64,000 nucleotides of DNA from Escherichia coli (GTDB taxonomy: Bacteria; Pseudomonadota; Gammaproteobacteria; Enterobacterales; Enterobacteriaceae). Shown here piece after piece: positions 663-35,267 of this stretch. Under the pieces are notes generated by a model. That model had not been told where the DNA came from, did not search any database, and saw nothing but the letters and a program-made list of their open reading frames with translations. Position 1 is the stretch's first letter; every line of letters starts with the position of its first letter. The stretch is from assembly GCF_003018115.1 (NCBI RefSeq), contig NZ_CP027457.1. One strand, written 5' to 3'. Both the position numbers and the translations under genes were made by a program.

Positions 663-707
663 TGGTGGAGCTGGCGGGAGTTGAACCCGCGTCCGAAATT
701 CCTACAT
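663..707. repeat. attL: 45-bp duplicate of the ssrA 3' end (prophage core attachment repeat)
   Basis: TGGTGGAGCTGGCGGGAGTTGAACCCGCGTCCGAAATTCCTACAT identical to 34905..34949; identity ends at 708. Confidence 0.85.
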
Positions 708-792: not shown

Positions 793-1839
793 TTAATGCT
801 CTGTCGCCAATCTGTCGCCATTGTAGGTCAACGAAGGTTGAGCCTTCCCTTTGTTTGTTATAATTTCATCAAAGATAGCTGGATTATTATCTTTCAGTAA
901 TCTTGCTAGTATAATGATTTGCCCAGACGAGCCATCATCCTTGAATGAAAGGAAATTATCGGTAATATCAAGAATATCAATGGTAAATTTGAAGTAAGTT
1001 TCAATTGTATCGCCAAGCTCAATGCTGGACATGAAGTTAGTAACCATTTCATATCCATCAAAGTATAAAGTTGCATGTTCATTTAACTCCATTGGAGTTA
1101 GGCAAAGCATTCGATTAAGTTCGGATAAGTGTTTTTCTATTGAATGAAGAGATTGCATTTGACGGATTAAAACTTCGTCAAACTGAGAGCCATGATTAGA
1201 TGAATGTATCTTCTCTAGGTTTTTTAGTATATCAACCCAGTGATTATTCACTTCACGTATGTATTCTTTATCTGTATTTTTAGGCCGTCCCTTCTCTGGT
1301 GAGCTATTTATGAAAATATATCTATATAGATGTATTGGGTAGTTAATTTTATAACTTATCTCTTTAGTACCATAATGACGTTCGCGTTTAATGGTTTTGT
1401 TAGGTAAATTGGTGAAATAATCAGTAACGAACTTTAGATGGCTATAGTAGCTATCAGATAGATTCTTTTGCTTGGTTTCCTCAATTTGTCGGTTTGTTTG
1501 AACTGTGCGGTGTATGTTTGCTACGACAGCAACAAATGGTATGGACAAAGAAAGTAAGGCGATAGGAAGCTTGCTAATTGCAATGAAATTATTAAAGCCC
1601 TCACTATCAAATTGAGGGGAATGTCCAAGCCAGGAAAATATACCAAAGTATATCGCTGAAAATACAGGAATCCTAAGTGATTGTTTAAATAAGTATTGAC
1701 TTGTTAATGGCCTTTCATCCATGTTAAAGCCTTTTTTTGATACGCATAGATATAATTCAAGGCATATATATAAAAAATATATTATGATAAGTAAGTACGA
1801 TATCCATGGGTATTGTTGGATATAGTTATTAACAAACAC
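793..1839 (-). CDS. hypothetical membrane protein (about 3 N-terminal TM helices plus ~230-aa soluble domain); AT-rich cargo between int and attL
   Basis: 348-codon ORF with GTG start at 1837-1839 preceded by GGAG; hydrophobic segments WISYLLIIIYFLYICLELYL, IPVFSAIYFGIFSWLG, LPIALLSLSIPFVAVVANI; AT-rich relative to phage backbone; no recognisable catalytic motif. Confidence 0.55.
   Translation of the reverse strand: MFVNNYIQQYPWISYLLIIIYFLYICLELYLCVSKKGFNMDERPLTSQYLFKQSLRIPVFSAIYFGIFSWLGHSPQFDSEGFNNFIAISKLPIALLSLSIPFVAVVANIHRTVQTNRQIEETKQKNLSDSYYSHLKFVTDYFTNLPNKTIKRERHYGTKEISYKINYPIHLYRYIFINSSPEKGRPKNTDKEYIREVNNHWVDILKNLEKIHSSNHGSQFDEVLIRQMQSLHSIEKHLSELNRMLCLTPMELNEHATLYFDGYEMVTNFMSSIELGDTIETYFKFTIDILDITDNFLSFKDDGSSGQIIILARLLKDNNPAIFDEIITNKGKAQPSLTYNGDRLATEH
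801..821. repeat. tandem direct repeats CTGTCGCCA(A/T), candidate integrase arm-type (P') sites
   Basis: CTGTCGCCAAT CTGTCGCCAT about 95-115 bp from the core; same 10-mer occurs as an inverted pair at 34808..34846 near attR. Confidence 0.4.
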
Positions 1840-2868
1840 TTTCTAATTTTCTCCATCCAAGGTTAGCAAGAGGATTTTTGGTTACAGCATCTTCCAGATG
1901 GTCGGGAGCGAAGTGGGCGTAAATCATTGTCATTTTTATATCGACATGGCCCAGAATATCGCGCAGCACCAGTATGTTTCCGCCATTCATCATAAAGTGA
2001 CTTGCAAATGTATGTCGTAATACGTGTGTGCATTGCCCTTCTGGTAGCTCGATGCCAGCTCGTTTTACCGCACGTTCAAAAGCTTTCCTACAAGGTGTAA
2101 ATAATTTTCCCCTATTCTTAGGCAGTTCTTCATATAAATCCTTTGAAATAGGCACTGTTCGGTTTTTCTTTCCTTTAGTCTTGGTATAAGTGATACGGTA
2201 TTTTGACACCTGATGACTCTGCAGGTTTTCGGCTTCGCTCCAGCGTGCGCCGGTGGCCAAGCATATTTTTGCAATCATCAGCAGACTGGGGCTTTGAGAA
2301 TCAGCACAGGCATCCAGCAGACGTTTAATTTCTTCCGGGGTCAGGAACGCCAATTCACCCTCAGCAATTTTAAATGTTGGCAGCCCAGCAAGCGGGTTGG
2401 GGGCTGCCAGTGGCCCAGCTTTTTCAGTGTACCAAAAACAGATGATAGGTTGCGCTGTTCAAGATTTACCGTGCGGGGCTTAACGGGCGACATAAGCGTG
2501 CCATCTTCATTTCGTACTTCACCTTTTAACCGTGCTTCGCGGTATTTCGTAAACTCACCAGCTGTCAGTTCTGAGGCGATGGGATCGCCTAGACCATTAC
2601 AGATAATTCTAAGTTTCGCCATGAGGCGCTTGGGGTCTGCGAGTGTTTGACCATACAGGGAATACCACAGCTCAATTAATTCTGATAGATGTCGCCGATC
2701 TTCCTTTTCCCCTAGCCATGGTTTTTTGTTCACTTCTTCCATTGTGAAGCTTTCAAACGCAATGGCTTCGCCTTTGGTAGCAAATTGCTTACGCACGCGC
2801 TTACCATTGCGTCCATTGGGATAGCACTCACACAACCATTTTCCGTTCGGCTGTTTTCTGATGGTCAT
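1829..2868 (-). pseudogene. int: P2-family tyrosine integrase, interrupted by an apparent 1-nt frameshift in a G5 run (2399..2403)
   Basis: Two overlapping ORFs (2341..2868 N-terminal part, 1829..2353 catalytic part with ...HVLRHTFASHF...MIYAHF motifs); adding one G/C to the homopolymer gives a continuous ...HWQPPNPLAGLPTFKIAEGELAFLTPEEI... reading. Confidence 0.7.
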
Positions 2869-2871
2869 AAG

Positions 2872-3510
2872 TTAGAGGTTCTTGATTACTTTGACTGCAC
2901 GTCCTAGGACTTCCACATCATCTACAGAACATTCAAATGAAGTGTCATCTTGGTTAACTACTATTTTGTTTCCGGGTATGCGCGCAATTTTGACGATGCT
3001 TTTAACTCCGTCCATATCGACTAACCAGAAGCCATTACTGACTTGTTTAACAGACGTATCCACTACAAAGCTATCATTAGCTGTTTTAACAAATAAAGCG
3101 TTGGATGAGTCACCATCGAGCAGGCTGCTATCAAGAAGAATTTCATCACTTGGCTGCAGTTCGCCGTTCTTCAGTTCAACACGTTTGATGCTAGGAGCGA
3201 CGATCTTAGAAAGTGGTCTTACAGTGACAGGAGGTTCATTTTTGAGATTTGTTTCTTCGTTCTCACACGCATACATATCTCCTTGACCAGTAGCCAGCCA
3301 TAGAAGGGAAACTCCTGTTTCAAGGGCACATTGGATTACCCATTCGGCAGGAAAGCTATCCCTTAAGTATCTGTTAGCCATAGTGCTTTTTGATACTTCC
3401 AGATGTTCGCAGAGCTGCTGTCGTGAGCTGAAGTTGTAAGCCTTAATAAGCCTATTAATCGCATCGCGCCCACCACTATCATTCCCCGCCTTGATTAAAC
3501 TCATAATCAA
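2872..3510 (-). CDS. cI: phage 186 CI-type immunity repressor (N-terminal HTH, C-terminal oligomerisation domain)
   Basis: 212-aa ORF divergent from apl/cII; position next to int; HTH-like SRQQLCEHLEVSKSTMANRYL. Confidence 0.75.
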   Translation of the reverse strand: MIMSLIKAGNDSGGRDAINRLIKAYNFSSRQQLCEHLEVSKSTMANRYLRDSFPAEWVIQCALETGVSLLWLATGQGDMYACENEETNLKNEPPVTVRPLSKIVAPSIKRVELKNGELQPSDEILLDSSLLDGDSSNALFVKTANDSFVVDTSVKQVSNGFWLVDMDGVKSIVKIARIPGNKIVVNQDDTSFECSVDDVEVLGRAVKVIKNL

Positions 3511-8863: not shown

Positions 8864-9052
8864 ATGCAGGACTATTTTTTGGAGTCTTTGAAGCTCCAGC
8901 GCATTGATTTTTTTCTTAAGCTTGTAGCGGCTAGTGAGTGTAGTGATGAAGAGAAGGGGCTGGCTCTGCAGTGGGTTTCTGAATTGACTGATGAACTCAT
9001 GGCAAAAATCAGAAGCCACGAATACAACCGCTCAATGGATGTCATCAGCTGA
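8864..9052 (+). CDS. small SOS-inducible protein, possible Tum-like antirepressor
   Basis: 62-aa ORF with AGGAGG RBS directly downstream of the LexA box; 186-like position after gene A. Confidence 0.45.
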   Translation: MQDYFLESLKLQRIDFFLKLVAASECSDEEKGLALQWVSELTDELMAKIRSHEYNRSMDVIS

Positions 9053-9062
9053 GGTGACTTTT

Positions 9063-9296
9063 ATGCGCATTGAAATAATGATCGATAAAGAGCAGAAGAT
9101 TAGCCAGTCTACCCTGGACGCCCTTGAATCCGAGCTTTACCGCAATCTGCGCCCCCTGTATCCCAAAACGGTAATTCGCATTCGCAAAGGTAGCTCTAAC
9201 GGTGTGGAACTAACCGGACTGCAACTGGATGAAGAAAGAAAACAAGTGATGAAAATTATGCAGAAGGTGTGGGAGGACGACAGCTGGCTGCATTAA
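9063..9296 (+). CDS. DinI-family protein
   Basis: 77 aa from ATG 9063 (RBS GAGGTG); MRIEIMIDKEQ...WEDDSWLH resembles DinI (MRIEVTI...W..ADDW). Confidence 0.7.
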   Translation: MRIEIMIDKEQKISQSTLDALESELYRNLRPLYPKTVIRIRKGSSNGVELTGLQLDEERKQVMKIMQKVWEDDSWLH

Positions 9297-10356: not shown

Positions 10357-12138
10357 ATGGCTGAACTATTACCGCAAACAACTTCTATACAAACTATTTA
10401 TTCATGGTTTACTGAAGGTAAGATATTTGTTAATAGACGTTATCAACGAAAATTAGTTTGGACTGCAATAGAGAAACAAAAATTAATTGAATCCATTCAA
10501 AAAAAATATCCAATTCCTGCAGTTCTTCTCGCGGAAAGGGAAAATGATCCTGGCACATATGAAATAATTGATGGCCTACAAAGATTACATGCAATAATGT
10601 CTTTCATCGAAACAGGATATGAATCACTTGATGGAAAACGTTTTAATCTGGACGCTTTTCCCACAGCGAAAAATCGAGCGGATGAAGGTAAGTTTGTTGC
10701 AGTGAAAGCTGATAATCTTTTAAGTCAGCGTGAGGTTACTCAGTTATTGGATTATTCTCTTGCAATGTCCATTATGCGTAATGCGACTGAGAACGAAATA
10801 AATGATGTTTTTGATAGAATTAATACATACGGGCATAGACTTAGTGATCAAGAAAGGCGCCAGGCTGGTATACAAAATAAATTTTCAAATATGGTTAGGG
10901 ATATTGCCTGTTCTATCAGGGGGGATGTATCTGACGACATATTGCTTTTAGAGCAAATGCCGTCTATTAGCATTGATTTGCCACTAACTAAACATGGTTA
11001 CCAAATTCAGTCGGAAGAAGTATTTTGGGTAAAACATGGGATCTTACGTTCAACAGACCTTCGTGACAGTATGGATGAGCAATGCATTGCAGATATAGCA
11101 GCTTGTATTGTTGGAGGTAAGTTAATAGATCGTTCCAAAGATGCGCTTGATCAGATTTATAATAATGAAGATGAAGAGTATAGTCGTATTAGCTCTGCTA
11201 TTAATGTTTATGGTGAAGGAAAATTTGCAGAAGAGTTTAAATTCTGCATCCAGGAAATAACAAAAGTATGTAATAGTGACGGTGAAATTAAACTCAGGGA
11301 TTTAATCTTTACTAAACGTACTACAAATGCTTTCCCAGCCATATTTGCTGTGTTATTTATTGCTTTTCATGAATTACTCATTAAAGAAAATAAGAAGATT
11401 AATAATTATAAAGGTGTAAAAGACAATCTTAATAATATAGTCACTCGACTAGATACTAAAAGATCTGCTACTGGTGGGGAAGAGAGAAGAAAGAATATTA
11501 ATTCTATCATAGGCTTGATTAAAGATAACTTTATTGATAGCGCCGATAGCAGTCATATCTATAATTCTCACAATACGGTGGATATTGAGGATATTTTACG
11601 AAGATCTGAAATAGAGCTTGCAAATTATGAACTGAAACAGGGTTTGTTGATGTTAGGCGGAGAGCGAACTATTGATGATGGCATTCATGAGAAAATATTC
11701 TCCACAATTTGTGCTATTGCTAACATCGGTAAAGGTAACAAGAACGGTGTAGTTGGTAAGTTATTGCTTGGTGTAACAGATAAACCAAGTGATACAAGTA
11801 GAGTAAAAGAGCTTGATGATATAGATGCACATGTAGTTGGTGAGAGAAGTGTTGTTGGTGTTAAAAGAGAAGCTATTAAACTCGGCATATCAATGGAAGA
11901 ATATTATAGACGTTTTTGCGATGAGTTGAAAAAATCTGCTTTGAGTGAGCCTCTTAAATCACAAGTGGTGAGTTTGATTGACTATAATGACTTTTATGGT
12001 TATGGAGTTATAGTTATTACAATTCCACTTCTAGCATCTTATTCTAGTTATGATGGGGATATTTATTATCGTGCTGGCGATAATACCGTAAAAGCAACAG
12101 TTATCGAAGCAGCAGATATTGCAACACGTTTTAAATGA
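10357..12138 (+). CDS. DUF262 (ParB/GmrS-like NTPase/nuclease-fold) N-domain fused to Schlafen/AlbA_2-like C-domain; candidate anti-phage defence protein
   Basis: 593 aa; N-terminal RRYQRKLVW and IIDGLQRLHA motifs (DUF262 signature); C-terminal ELANYELKQ...ICAIANIGKGNKNGVVGKLLLGVTD...IYYRAGDNT resembles AlbA_2/Schlafen core; no H-N-H/DUF1524 motif; AT-rich; between cos and portal gene. Confidence 0.7.
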   Translation: MAELLPQTTSIQTIYSWFTEGKIFVNRRYQRKLVWTAIEKQKLIESIQKKYPIPAVLLAERENDPGTYEIIDGLQRLHAIMSFIETGYESLDGKRFNLDAFPTAKNRADEGKFVAVKADNLLSQREVTQLLDYSLAMSIMRNATENEINDVFDRINTYGHRLSDQERRQAGIQNKFSNMVRDIACSIRGDVSDDILLLEQMPSISIDLPLTKHGYQIQSEEVFWVKHGILRSTDLRDSMDEQCIADIAACIVGGKLIDRSKDALDQIYNNEDEEYSRISSAINVYGEGKFAEEFKFCIQEITKVCNSDGEIKLRDLIFTKRTTNAFPAIFAVLFIAFHELLIKENKKINNYKGVKDNLNNIVTRLDTKRSATGGEERRKNINSIIGLIKDNFIDSADSSHIYNSHNTVDIEDILRRSEIELANYELKQGLLMLGGERTIDDGIHEKIFSTICAIANIGKGNKNGVVGKLLLGVTDKPSDTSRVKELDDIDAHVVGERSVVGVKREAIKLGISMEEYYRRFCDELKKSALSEPLKSQVVSLIDYNDFYGYGVIVITIPLLASYSSYDGDIYYRAGDNTVKATVIEAADIATRFK

Positions 12139-34053: not shown

Positions 34054-34272
34054 ATGATGAATTGTCCAAAGTGTGGTCATGCGGCACACACAAGGAGCAG
34101 TTTTCAAGTAACTGAAAGCACCAAAGAGCGTTACTGCCAGTGCCAAAATATTAACTGCGGGAGCACTTTTGTTACTCATGAAACAGTGGTCCGGTTTATT
34201 GTGACACCCGCACTGATTGCTACTGCTCCTCCACATCCATTGCCAGGTGGTCAGGGGCATATGAATTTTTGA
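34054..34272 (+). CDS. ogr: Ogr/Delta-family zinc-finger late transcription activator
   Basis: MMNCPKCGHAAHTRSS...ERYCQCQNINCGSTF...HPLPGG closely parallels P2 Ogr (CPLCQHAAH...YHQCQNVNCSATF...HPLPSG). Confidence 0.85.
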   Translation: MMNCPKCGHAAHTRSSFQVTESTKERYCQCQNINCGSTFVTHETVVRFIVTPALIATAPPHPLPGGQGHMNF

Positions 34273-34279
34273 GAAAGAG

Positions 34280-34300
34280 AACCTGCTACGGCAGGTTTTT
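34280..34300. terminator. bidirectional Rho-independent terminator
   Basis: AACCTGC-tacg-GCAGGTT followed by TTTT; serves ogr (+) and the convergent WYL-BRCT gene (-). Confidence 0.65.
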
Positions 34301-34781
34301 ATTCATCTGGGATCTCACCCGTTTCAAGAAAATGTATAAAGCCAGGCTCATCTATGATGATTGTGCCTTTCATCCTGGCTGCCGATACTTTTGATGGGCC
34401 TGCATTGTAACCGCAACAGAGCATCTGAAGGCTTTGGGTTACAGAGGTTCTTACCGTTAATCCTTGTTCATTCGCCTTATCAACCAATCTTTCTTTATCT
34501 GCTTTCTTAAATCCGGTGAAACACACATCGAATGTATTTTTTTTCGGACCAGACTGCTTAGTGAGATGTGAGTAGCTTTCGGGGAGGAATGACGCGCATT
34601 CCTGAATGGCTTGTTCTGGTGAATCGTACTGTTTAAGAATGCGGTCTTTTCGGAAGGTTTTTATTCGATCGGTGTTCTTACAAATGCCCTGTATATGATT
34701 TTCGCTATAACTGATGCTCTGTATAGAGTGAACACCGATACGACCATTTGCATTGATGTAAACAAAGTGAAGTTCTTCCAT
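34299..34781 (-). CDS. small WYL-domain plus BRCT-domain protein, cargo between ogr and attR
   Basis: 160 aa; N-terminal FVYINANGRIGVHSI...GICKNTDRIKTFRKDRI (WYL-like, ends in the FRxDRI signature); C-terminal DVCFTGFKKADKERLVDKANEQGLTVRTSVTQSLQMLCCGYNAGPSKVSAARMKGTIIIDEPGF (BRCT-like); RBS AGAGG before ATG at 34779-34781. Confidence 0.6.
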   Translation of the reverse strand: MEELHFVYINANGRIGVHSIQSISYSENHIQGICKNTDRIKTFRKDRILKQYDSPEQAIQECASFLPESYSHLTKQSGPKKNTFDVCFTGFKKADKERLVDKANEQGLTVRTSVTQSLQMLCCGYNAGPSKVSAARMKGTIIIDEPGFIHFLETGEIPDE

Positions 34782-34807
34782 GTGAAACCTCTTTGCATGA
34801 TCTCAAG

Positions 34808-34846
34808 ATGGCGACAGGCAAGATGGACGCAAAAGTCTGTCGCCAT
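34808..34846. repeat. inverted pair of the CTGTCGCCAT motif (ATGGCGACAG ... CTGTCGCCAT), candidate P-arm integrase binding sites / hairpin
   Basis: Perfect 10-bp inverted repeat with 19-nt spacer, 60-100 bp from attR core; same motif as 801..821. Confidence 0.4.
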
Positions 34847-34904
34847 TTTGCCGCCACTACCAAAGAAAAAGGGGCTACGCTTTCACGTAACCCCTTGATT
34901 TATT

Positions 34905-35267
34905 TGGTGGAGCTGGCGGGAGTTGAACCCGCGTCCGAAATTCCTACATCCTCGGTACTACATGCTTAGTCAGTCTTTACATTCGCTTGCCAGCTGCGGA
35001 CGGACACGCCACTAACAAACTAGCCTGATTAAGTTTTAACGCTTCAACCCCTGGCAGGGCTTCCACGCGATCTCTTTTGGGTTTGACCTCTCTTGATCCC
35101 CGTCCTAAGAGCGGAGGCTAGGGAGAGAGGGCTCTAAGCAGGTTATTAAGCTGCTAAAGCGTAGTTTTCGTCGTTTGCGACTATTTTTTGCGGCTTTTTA
35201 CGAGGCCAACCGCCCCTCGGCATGCACCTTGGGTTTCGCAAATCCCGTCGAATCCAGAATCAGCCCC
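34905..35267 (-). ncRNA. ssrA: tmRNA (SsrA), complete; 3' 45 nt form attR
   Basis: Reverse complement matches the E. coli tmRNA from GGGGCTGATTCTGGATTCGACGGG to ...GGTTCAACTCCCGCCAGCTCCACCA, including the tag-encoding region. Confidence 0.95.

Follow-up and report, generated by a model that had tools for sequence, protein, structure and literature searches.

A WYL-BRCT protein of the lysogenic operon in P2-like phages as a candidate sensor-adaptor of Escherichia coli prophages

What does a prophage gain from a small protein that carries the domains of a ligand sensor and of a DNA-end binder, and no output domain? The question is raised by an open reading frame (ORF) at 34299..34781 (minus strand) in a window of 64,000 nucleotides of Escherichia coli (NCBI RefSeq assembly GCF_003018115.1, contig NZ_CP027457.1), the whole stretch of DNA to which all coordinates below refer. 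The ORF lies at the right end of a P2/186-like prophage and encodes a WYL-BRCT protein, here named X. We found that the gene stands in a near-universal position after the phage repressor gene in distant relatives, that the protein has repeatedly been fused to membrane anchors, and that it is separated from its operon in the E. coli lineage. The reading that we prefer, with a probability of roughly 40% and largely by analogy, is that X is an exclusion or defence sensor-adaptor expressed in lysogens, which would recognise junctions of single-stranded DNA (ssDNA) and 5'-phosphate ends in a way akin to RexA of phage lambda.

The ORF starts with ATG and encodes 160 amino acids followed by a stop codon. 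Direct reading of the sequence places a Shine-Dalgarno element, AGAGG (34788..34792, minus strand), 6 nt before the ATG, and an AAGGTG equivalent is kept in relatives. X matches phrog_2561 over its full length (2.5e-77); searches gave 122 close homologs and 2629 cluster representatives (50% identity) at E ≤ 1e-3, 896 of which remained at E ≤ 1e-10. Pairwise ratios of nonsynonymous to synonymous substitution rates (dN/dS) were 0.06-0.22 in all unsaturated comparisons, and the gene is under purifying selection, the copies adjacent to the phage attachment site (att) in E. coli-type prophages included. Of 5426 complete E. coli genomes, 175 carry it with 95-100% conservation, and only 28 phage records have it. 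The homologs, the low dN/dS, the Shine-Dalgarno element and the conservation within E. coli together show that the ORF is not a chance one. A preliminary description had given its position and length, its motifs TFRKDRI (residues 42-48), CFTGF (87-91) and GPSKVSAARMKGTIIIDEPGF (128-148), and its location between ogr and attR, all of which can be read from the sequence.

The C-terminal half of the protein is a single BRCT domain of the RFC1/LigA class (residues 84-160; 34302..34532, minus strand). The sequence of X itself matched the Pfam BRCT model (PF00533) marginally (independent E-value 0.0019), and comparisons were extended to a family alignment and profile of 38 diverse relatives (the close set) and to an extended set of 60 members. 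Pfam BRCT was matched at E ≤ 1e-3 by 10 of the 38 close and 42 of the 60 extended relatives (best 1.4e-10), and in the PDB the 38-relative profile matched the BRCT domains of RFC1 (human and yeast) and of LigA from Thermus at 4e-5 to 1e-4, with best values of 3.9e-5 for RFC1 and 6.8e-5 for LigA. The domain has the beta-alpha-beta-beta-alpha-beta-alpha fold of BRCT domains. F88-T89-G90-F91 and K131 are invariant across the 38 sequences, K96 is nearly so (conserved in at least 90%), and the C-terminal FLETGEIP is conserved. K131 aligns to the lysine of 'GQSK' in RFC1 and of 'G-SK' in LigA. The canonical BRCT phosphate pocket consists of S/T-G in the beta1-alpha1 loop and a lysine at the N-terminus of alpha2 (PMC10386641), and T89-G90...K131 matches this definition, so that the pocket of X is, as judged from its residues, intact.

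The N-terminal part is a WYL domain, an Sm-like five-stranded beta-barrel followed by one helix (residues 1-62; 34596..34781, minus strand), which carries the motif K41-T-F-R-K-D-R-I48 and the invariant residues Y8 and T42. The Pfam WYL model (PF13280) gave no match for X itself at E ≤ 10, and was matched at E ≤ 1e-3 by 2 of the 38 close and 18 of the 60 extended family members (best 2.3e-8); PADLOC WYL models matched two relatives. In the PDB, PafBC was the single match of the N-terminal profile (E = 2), and the aligned segment was the TFRxxRI motif (TFRLSRI in PafBC). Because BRCT matches swamped the full-length fold search, residues 1-62 were modelled separately (predicted local distance difference test, pLDDT, 93.6), and Foldseek placed PafBC, BrxR, DriD and CapW at the top ranks with a probability of about 1.0. 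The model shows the Sm/SH3-like five-stranded beta-barrel of WYL domains. Within the WYL signature, T42 is invariant, F43 is conserved in at least 90%, and the position of the W-Y-L triad reads H29-I30-Q31. The preliminary description had called both domains by eye, and profile and structure searches support both calls: the WYL-like fold by the isolated-domain model, its Foldseek matches and the family-level Pfam matches, and the BRCT-like domain by the family profile matches in PDB and Pfam and the invariant pocket residues.

The two domains are joined by a variable basic linker (residues 63-83; 34533..34595, minus strand; isoelectric point, pI, 9.5), a short helix followed by low-confidence coil, which is polymorphic in length and aligns in indel-rich columns. 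The AlphaFold2 model of full-length X has a pLDDT of 92.4, falling to 71 at residues 71-80, and a predicted template modelling score of 0.53, which for this model indicates that the WYL and BRCT domains are not rigidly packed. X has no Pfam match to a helix-turn-helix (HTH) domain, no WCX domain and no catalytic domain; the first WYL strand starts at residue 3, and everything past residue 83 is BRCT.

A repressor gene was located 0 or 1 gene upstream of X, on the same strand, in 20 of 23 independent distant contexts, and the gap between X and the preceding gene was 3-45 nt in loci with available coordinates. X directly follows a CI-like gene in Mannheimia PHL101, where its annotated ribosome-binding site lies inside the end of the CI gene, and it follows an HTH repressor gene in Vibrio PV94, with gp03 and int further downstream. 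The order in Pectobacterium and Xenorhabdus is Phage_CI_repr, X and, further on, int, with gaps of 13 and 34 nt before X. One gene intervenes in Burkholderia (XRE, membrane protein, X), in Serratia (HTH_3, Flk_N-like, X, int) and in a lambda-like Pseudomonas phage (CI-like, 99-aa gene, X). The same position was found in 9 of 11 further IMG/VR loci, and extended forms of the protein also occupy it: a form with five transmembrane (TM) helices (P0209) lies 15 nt after Phage_CI_repr, a 3-TM form (P0223) 24 nt after an HTH/S24 repressor gene, a C-extended form (P0188) 38 nt after an S24 repressor gene, and P0173 after a CI/S24-like ORF. The repressor types upstream of X (Phage_CI_repr, HTH_3/XRE and Peptidase_S24) are mutually unrelated, and X is therefore tied to the lysogenic transcript and not to a particular repressor protein. 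One clear exception is a small integrative island of a marine gammaproteobacterium, in which X lies beside an Mrr-type nuclease gene with a DNA methylase gene nearby.

Comparison with core genes shows how X is inherited. Its identity to relatives follows that of gpD, gpU, Ogr and Int (98/99, 72/88, 71/76, 63/72, 59/52 and 34/45%), from which we infer that it is inherited with the phage backbone. The preliminary description had placed X among moron cargo genes, which does not agree with these data: X diverges with the core genes instead of turning over rapidly, and ancestrally, in a near-universal arrangement, it is the gene directly behind the repressor in the lysogenic operon. Variable genes were observed after X in the interval between cI and int, including a SEFIR/TIR_2 protein and NOV_C (L095 8114-9544) and mutually homologous phrog_3634 proteins (32% identity) in a Pectobacterium prophage and an unrelated contig (L090 6512-7447 and L096 3210-3995). 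This suggests a slot for defence cargo just downstream of X.

A link to the membrane recurs across the family. Architectures were counted in the top 150 representatives, with TM helices called by Kyte-Doolittle hydropathy (19-residue window, threshold 1.6). About 88 representatives were standalone, 45 were N-extended and about 15 were C-extended; the extension contained 1-5 predicted TM helices in 38 of the 45 N-extended relatives, about a quarter of the top 150. The N-terminal extensions formed at least eight mutually unrelated BLAST clusters as well as singletons, which implies repeated independent fusion to membrane anchors. A ~220-aa C-terminal domain of other relatives, those of phrog_36782, had no match in Pfam, NCBIfam or PDB. 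Further variants carry repeats of BRCT or of the whole WYL-BRCT module: P0121 (710 aa) has five matched stretches, P0130 has a second BRCT at its C-terminus, and P0173 and P0174 are also repeat-bearing, so the module can be multimerised within one chain.

Membrane proteins are also encoded next to soluble forms of X. Serratia, Burkholderia and one IMG/VR prophage (L088 5317-5955, L002 3215-3964 and L169 3306-3908) encode a tail-anchored protein (phrog_5825/phrog_6521; Pfam Flk_N; weakly similar to the anti-repressor Ant) between the repressor and X, which makes it a possible partner of X. The X gene of the marine island is preceded by the gene of a 75-aa TM protein, which ends 8 nt upstream. 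In the window, the gene between int and attL is orf348 (793-1839, minus strand; 348 aa, two predicted TM helices, phrog_17460), a candidate defence gene. The preliminary description had pointed to this membrane protein as a possible partner of X, and such a link is not conserved: the free Escherichia phage Cartapus has a RES-domain protein in this place, and Yersinia phage MLG42 has nothing. The more general membrane link exists, on sequence grounds, in the TM-fused relatives. A Rosetta-stone comparison found no homology between the TM extensions and neighbouring proteins (orf348, the phrog_5825/6521 proteins, and those of Vibrio, Xenorhabdus and Pseudothioglobus), and orf348 has no similarity to the 283-aa protein of Xenorhabdus. 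Because no extension is homologous to a neighbour protein, the membrane link appears as a recurring theme and not as a defined two-gene system.

The E. coli arrangement departs from this plan in that the unit is split. X is convergent with an Ogr/B-like zinc-finger late activator gene directly to its left (34054..34272, plus strand; phrog_603, 9e-28; RefSeq annotation), which itself comes after gpD. To the right of X lies the 29-bp attR core (34905..34933, strandless), which is identical to the attL core at 663..691 and doubles as the 3' end of ssrA, the gene of the transfer-messenger RNA (tmRNA; 34905..35267, minus strand). The rest of the lysogenic unit (793..3510, minus strand), contiguous with X in the circular phage, is located at the left end and comprises cI (2872-3510), int (2341-2868 and 1829-2353) and orf348. 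Cartapus and MLG42 carry, in this order and all on one strand, cI, int, a variable gene where present, attP and X, convergent with ogr, and the unit in the window is this order cut at att. The gene between int and att varies, as noted for orf348, and X is constant. A 2026 preprint on the defence hotspots of P2 lists a minor site between int and att, which corresponds to this variable slot, and does not list ogr-att (10.64898/2026.02.27.708500). The simplest history is that a cassette of int, cargo and attP came to occupy the space between cI and X, and integration therefore leaves X behind host ssrA, or behind tRNA-Met in relatives. All att-adjacent relatives that were checked have an intact host RNA gene 123-178 nt upstream of X and on its strand (tmRNA at 7 loci, tRNA-Met at 5). 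We discarded the idea that X has a role linked to tmRNA or tRNA itself: the adjacency follows from the choice of att and is absent in the ancestral arrangement.

The region between the RNA gene and X follows a common plan in all 11 related prophage junctions inspected: a terminator hairpin with a T-run after tmRNA or tRNA-Met, then a direct repeat, then a conserved Shine-Dalgarno element. In the window, the intrinsic-terminator hairpin (34859..34896, minus strand; 12-bp stem, GAAA loop, T-run) stands directly after the CCA end of tmRNA, on the phage side of the att core, and is a replacement supplied by the phage. Because it stands on the phage side, it obstructs read-through from ssrA in the prophage and from int in the circular phage. 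The repeats lie in the P' arm of attP (34808..34857, minus strand), with a direct repeat GTGGCGGCA-AAA-TGGCGACAG at 34837-34857 and an inverted copy CTGTCGCCAT/ATGGCGACAG at 34808-34817. The attL arm holds tandem copies, TGGCGACAGA-T-TGGCGACAGA, at 800-820 inside the 3' end of orf348 (motif TGGCGACAG(A)). The repeat reads TGGCAGCA-AAA-TGGCAGCA in four of the five tRNA-Met loci and TGGCGATA-AAA-TGGCGATG in the fifth, L082. Since the same motif occurs on the attL arm and the repeat co-varies with the att and int type, the repeats upstream of X are most likely arm-type binding sites of integrase (Int). The inverted repeat at 34808-34846 had also been considered as an operator of X, and is explained by this arm-type motif. 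Likewise, a TGTAAT -10-like element in Klebsiella/Citrobacter-type loci was rejected as a promoter of X, as its transcript would lose the Shine-Dalgarno element, and the TGT-N12-ACA dyad of P2 late promoters is absent upstream of X.

Several other features of this prophage and its relatives were observed. The int gene is split into two overlapping ORFs, which correspond to residues 1-168 and 145-337 of the intact 338-aa Cartapus Int in different frames, so that a frameshift lies near 2365-2437. Either the prophage may have lost the ability to excise or the frameshift may stem from sequencing; int is intact in a closely related prophage of E. coli 2014C-3011. Between gpA and the portal gene, at the classic old/tin hotspot of P2, a 593-aa protein (phrog_26759; 10357-12138, plus strand) is encoded, where the related prophage of 2014C-3011 has a P-loop NTPase. 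In two E. coli relatives (L033 1-6850 and L055 1-6990), an extra integrative element is inserted in tandem between ssrA and X; one such element has its own integrase and the other is P4-like with a 777-aa primase. L055 has a hybrid att core, and its X frame ends early, at 125 aa.

How could such a protein act? Characterised WYL domains bind short ssDNA and signal DNA damage or infection, among them that of CapW, via conserved Ser/Arg contacts (PMC11662680), and those of DriD and PafBC. The isolated BRCT domain of RFC1 binds 5'-phosphorylated duplex ends (Kd ~10 nM) with a preference for a 3' ssDNA overhang (PMC9293009), and the BRCT domain of LigA aids nick binding (PMC10386641). By analogy, the WYL domain of X would bind a few nucleotides of ssDNA, and its BRCT pocket a 5'-phosphate at a duplex end. 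Together they would recognise single-strand/double-strand junctions with a 5'-phosphate; examples are gaps, resected ends, intermediates of rolling-circle replication or of recombination, and the ends of entering genomes. X, made in lysogens alongside the repressor, might then attach to structures of this kind in a foreign genome that superinfects or replicates, and obstruct or signal them, with the membrane-anchored relatives acting at the inner membrane. The outcome would be superinfection exclusion or abortive infection, analogous to that of RexA(/RexB). A defence flavour is also seen in the likeness of the BRCT domain to the PADLOC candidate PDC-S48, in the TIR/SEFIR and other variable cargo after X, and in the non-phage copy beside Mrr-type and methylase genes. 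The data are consistent with the proposal of the preliminary description that X is a sensor or regulator rather than a structural protein.

A number of observations weigh against an exclusion sensor. X is near-neutral overall (pI 6.95) and its BRCT part is acidic (pI 5.3); the W-Y-L triad is replaced by H-I-Q; and the ssDNA-contact residues of CapW and BrxR (S144/R164/R168/R184 in CapW; the RWHVR motif) could not be mapped onto X from sequence searches. The BRCT pocket could instead bind ADP-ribose-type ligands or a phosphoprotein. The 160-aa protein of E. coli has no effector domain and no conserved partner gene, and vertical inheritance with core genes is unusual for defence cargo and suits a role in the phage life cycle equally well. 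Expression is a further difficulty: in the window, X is outside the cI operon and behind a strong terminator, with int, the cargo ORF, attP and the prophage junction separating it from cI, and no recognisable sigma-70 promoter for X was found by a scan or by eye in 11 aligned upstream regions. Cut off from the cI promoter, X in the prophage therefore depends on read-through from ssrA or on an unrecognised promoter. The literature search on WYL-BRCT proteins returned nothing beyond a one-line listing of the architecture, and no experimental work on any family member.

A wider formulation, which we put forward tentatively and regard as doubtful, is that WYL-BRCT proteins are a widespread and previously unrecognised class of immunity sensors for ssDNA/5'-phosphate junctions in prophage repressor operons, many of them single-chain, membrane-anchored and Rex-like, the E. 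coli members having had their expression rewired by integration behind ssrA or tRNA-Met.

Among other explanations, the one that fares best is that X modulates the lysogeny switch, its WYL domain sensing ssDNA from damage and the protein acting on the repressor, on Int or on the switch region, as an induction or anti-induction factor and not against other phages. The tight linkage to the repressor gene across repressor families and genera and the vertical inheritance with the backbone suit this explanation, and so do the facts that all characterised WYL sensors report DNA damage via ssDNA, that lambda RexA modulates the CI/Cro switch (PMC12894663), and that the E. coli gene starts 16-70 nt from the Int arm-type sites. 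We nevertheless consider it unlikely, since X lacks an HTH or other output domain, the unrelated folds of the repressors argue against a specific protein partner, and recurrent independent fusion to TM anchors fits poorly with a soluble switch factor. In addition, X occurs with self-cleaving S24 repressors, which need no added damage sensor, and the phage already has a DinI/Tum-like gene (phrog_189; 8991-9296, plus strand) after replication gene A.

Less probable still is that X protects or processes the DNA of its own phage while lysogeny is established. It would cap or tether ends, nicks or cos termini, either against RecBCD or end-sensing defences or as an aid to circularisation and ligation by LigA, and would be expressed from the circular genome only, by cII-dependent and cI promoters. 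The split E. coli unit is contiguous in that form, but the terminator also blocks read-through from int there, and the ancestral gene lies in the repressor operon, constitutively on in lysogens. Many P2/186-like phages lack X, the phage records with it being few, and the membrane-anchored forms are left unexplained.

It is very improbable that X is an anti-defence sponge or decoy, either for nucleotide-derived immune signals of the ADP-ribose or cyclic-nucleotide type or for the ssDNA that activates WYL-regulated defences of the host. BRCT phosphate pockets can bind poly(ADP-ribose), as in XRCC1 (PMC6334254), WYL domains can bind nucleotides such as c-di-GMP (PMC11880434), and X is a small binder with no catalytic domain; however, a gene tied to the lysogenic operon and not to the early lytic genes makes an atypical anti-defence gene, X bears no similarity to sponges already known, and the TM-fused variants are again unexplained. 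The probability that remains beyond these readings belongs to something not considered here.

That X is a DNA ligase or exonuclease, as annotated, has next to no probability: although PHROG and RefSeq phage records call it 'DNA ligase' and the Cartapus record 'putative exonuclease', the matches to TIGR00575 (LigA; 19.6 bits against a cut-off of 444) and to the DEDDh exonuclease model NF004719 (25.9 bits against 389; model positions 229-307) are weak and cover the BRCT end only, 160 aa leave no room for the adenylation domain of a ligase with its KxDG lysine or for the OB, zinc-finger and HhH parts, and there is no DEDDh domain. These labels, which derive from BRCT similarity alone, are wrong, and the WYL domain, linker and BRCT domain account for all 160 residues.

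X is a full-length member of phrog_2561, a family that owes its label 'DNA ligase' to an annotation artefact, the similarity of the BRCT domain. The related phrog_36782 holds the same WYL-BRCT module with the ~220-aa C-terminal domain, which has no counterpart in X. The likeness to PDC-S48 is confined to the C-terminal ~70 residues of X, the BRCT domain (1.8e-7; relatives up to 2.6e-13), and to about positions 335-406 of the 411-residue model, the remainder of which is missing from X; PDC-S48 is itself uncharacterised, and our literature search found no paper on it. One record that names X 'DNA ligase', NC_049342.1 (Escherichia phage 500465-1; L005), runs past attR into host smpB, ratA, bamE, recN and the NAD kinase gene, and is a prophage-plus-flank excerpt and not a phage genome. 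The family was thus already known in PHROGs and RefSeq under uninformative or wrong names, and the WYL plus BRCT combination is listed in one sentence of Makarova et al. 2014 (PMC4012209). The present analysis adds the confirmation of both domains by structure, the conservation of the phosphate pocket, the near-universal place of the gene after the repressor gene, the membrane-anchored variants, and the displacement across attP in the E. coli lineage.

The family holds the classic lysogenic-conversion slot beside the repressor in P2-like and some other temperate phages of Proteobacteria. The understanding of WYL domains so far is that they sense a ligand and drive the HTH or enzyme to which they are attached, whereas in X the sole partner is a BRCT domain of the DNA-end-binding class, sometimes with a membrane anchor; because there is no other partner, the output must be binding or occlusion, or the recruitment of another factor. 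Should X prove to be a sensor for exclusion or abortive infection, it would give us a compact and genetically tractable model of how prophages recognise intermediates of foreign DNA, a question open even for lambda Rex, and would also correct a common ligase mis-annotation. The displacement across attP amounts to a natural experiment on the rewiring of prophage gene expression by integration.

X can be compared with three groups of known systems. It differs from CapW/BrxR, DriD and PafBC in that its WYL domain is not flanked by a winged HTH and a WCX domain, has BRCT as its partner and H-I-Q in place of the triad, and belongs to a family in which a minority reach Pfam WYL significance; without the winged HTH for DNA binding and WCX for dimerisation, X cannot act as a transcription factor. 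With RFC1 (p140) and LigA, a class that binds 5'-phosphate ends or nicks, it shares a single BRCT, the T-G...K pocket and the G-x-S-K motif, whereas the clamp-loader or ligase core is absent, the T/S-x-K motif is P-S-K in X, and DNA binding by X is a prediction. Lambda rexAB lies just downstream of cI and combines a DNA-binding sensor of replication intermediates with a membrane effector that together exclude other phages (PMC12894663). We detected no relation of sequence or fold between X and RexA or RexB, and no Rex model was among the PADLOC matches of X or its relatives. The TM parts of the relatives are heterogeneous anchors and not a conserved channel, and in E. coli X lacks a fixed partner in the membrane and has been displaced to the far side of attP. 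The X family nonetheless shares with rexAB the place directly downstream of the immunity repressor in the lysogenic operon, as in the large majority of the distant relatives, and the fusion to, or proximity of, membrane proteins. Because X lacks an output domain, was ancestrally co-transcribed with the repressor and is frequently tethered to the membrane, RexA/RexB of lambda is its closest working analogy.

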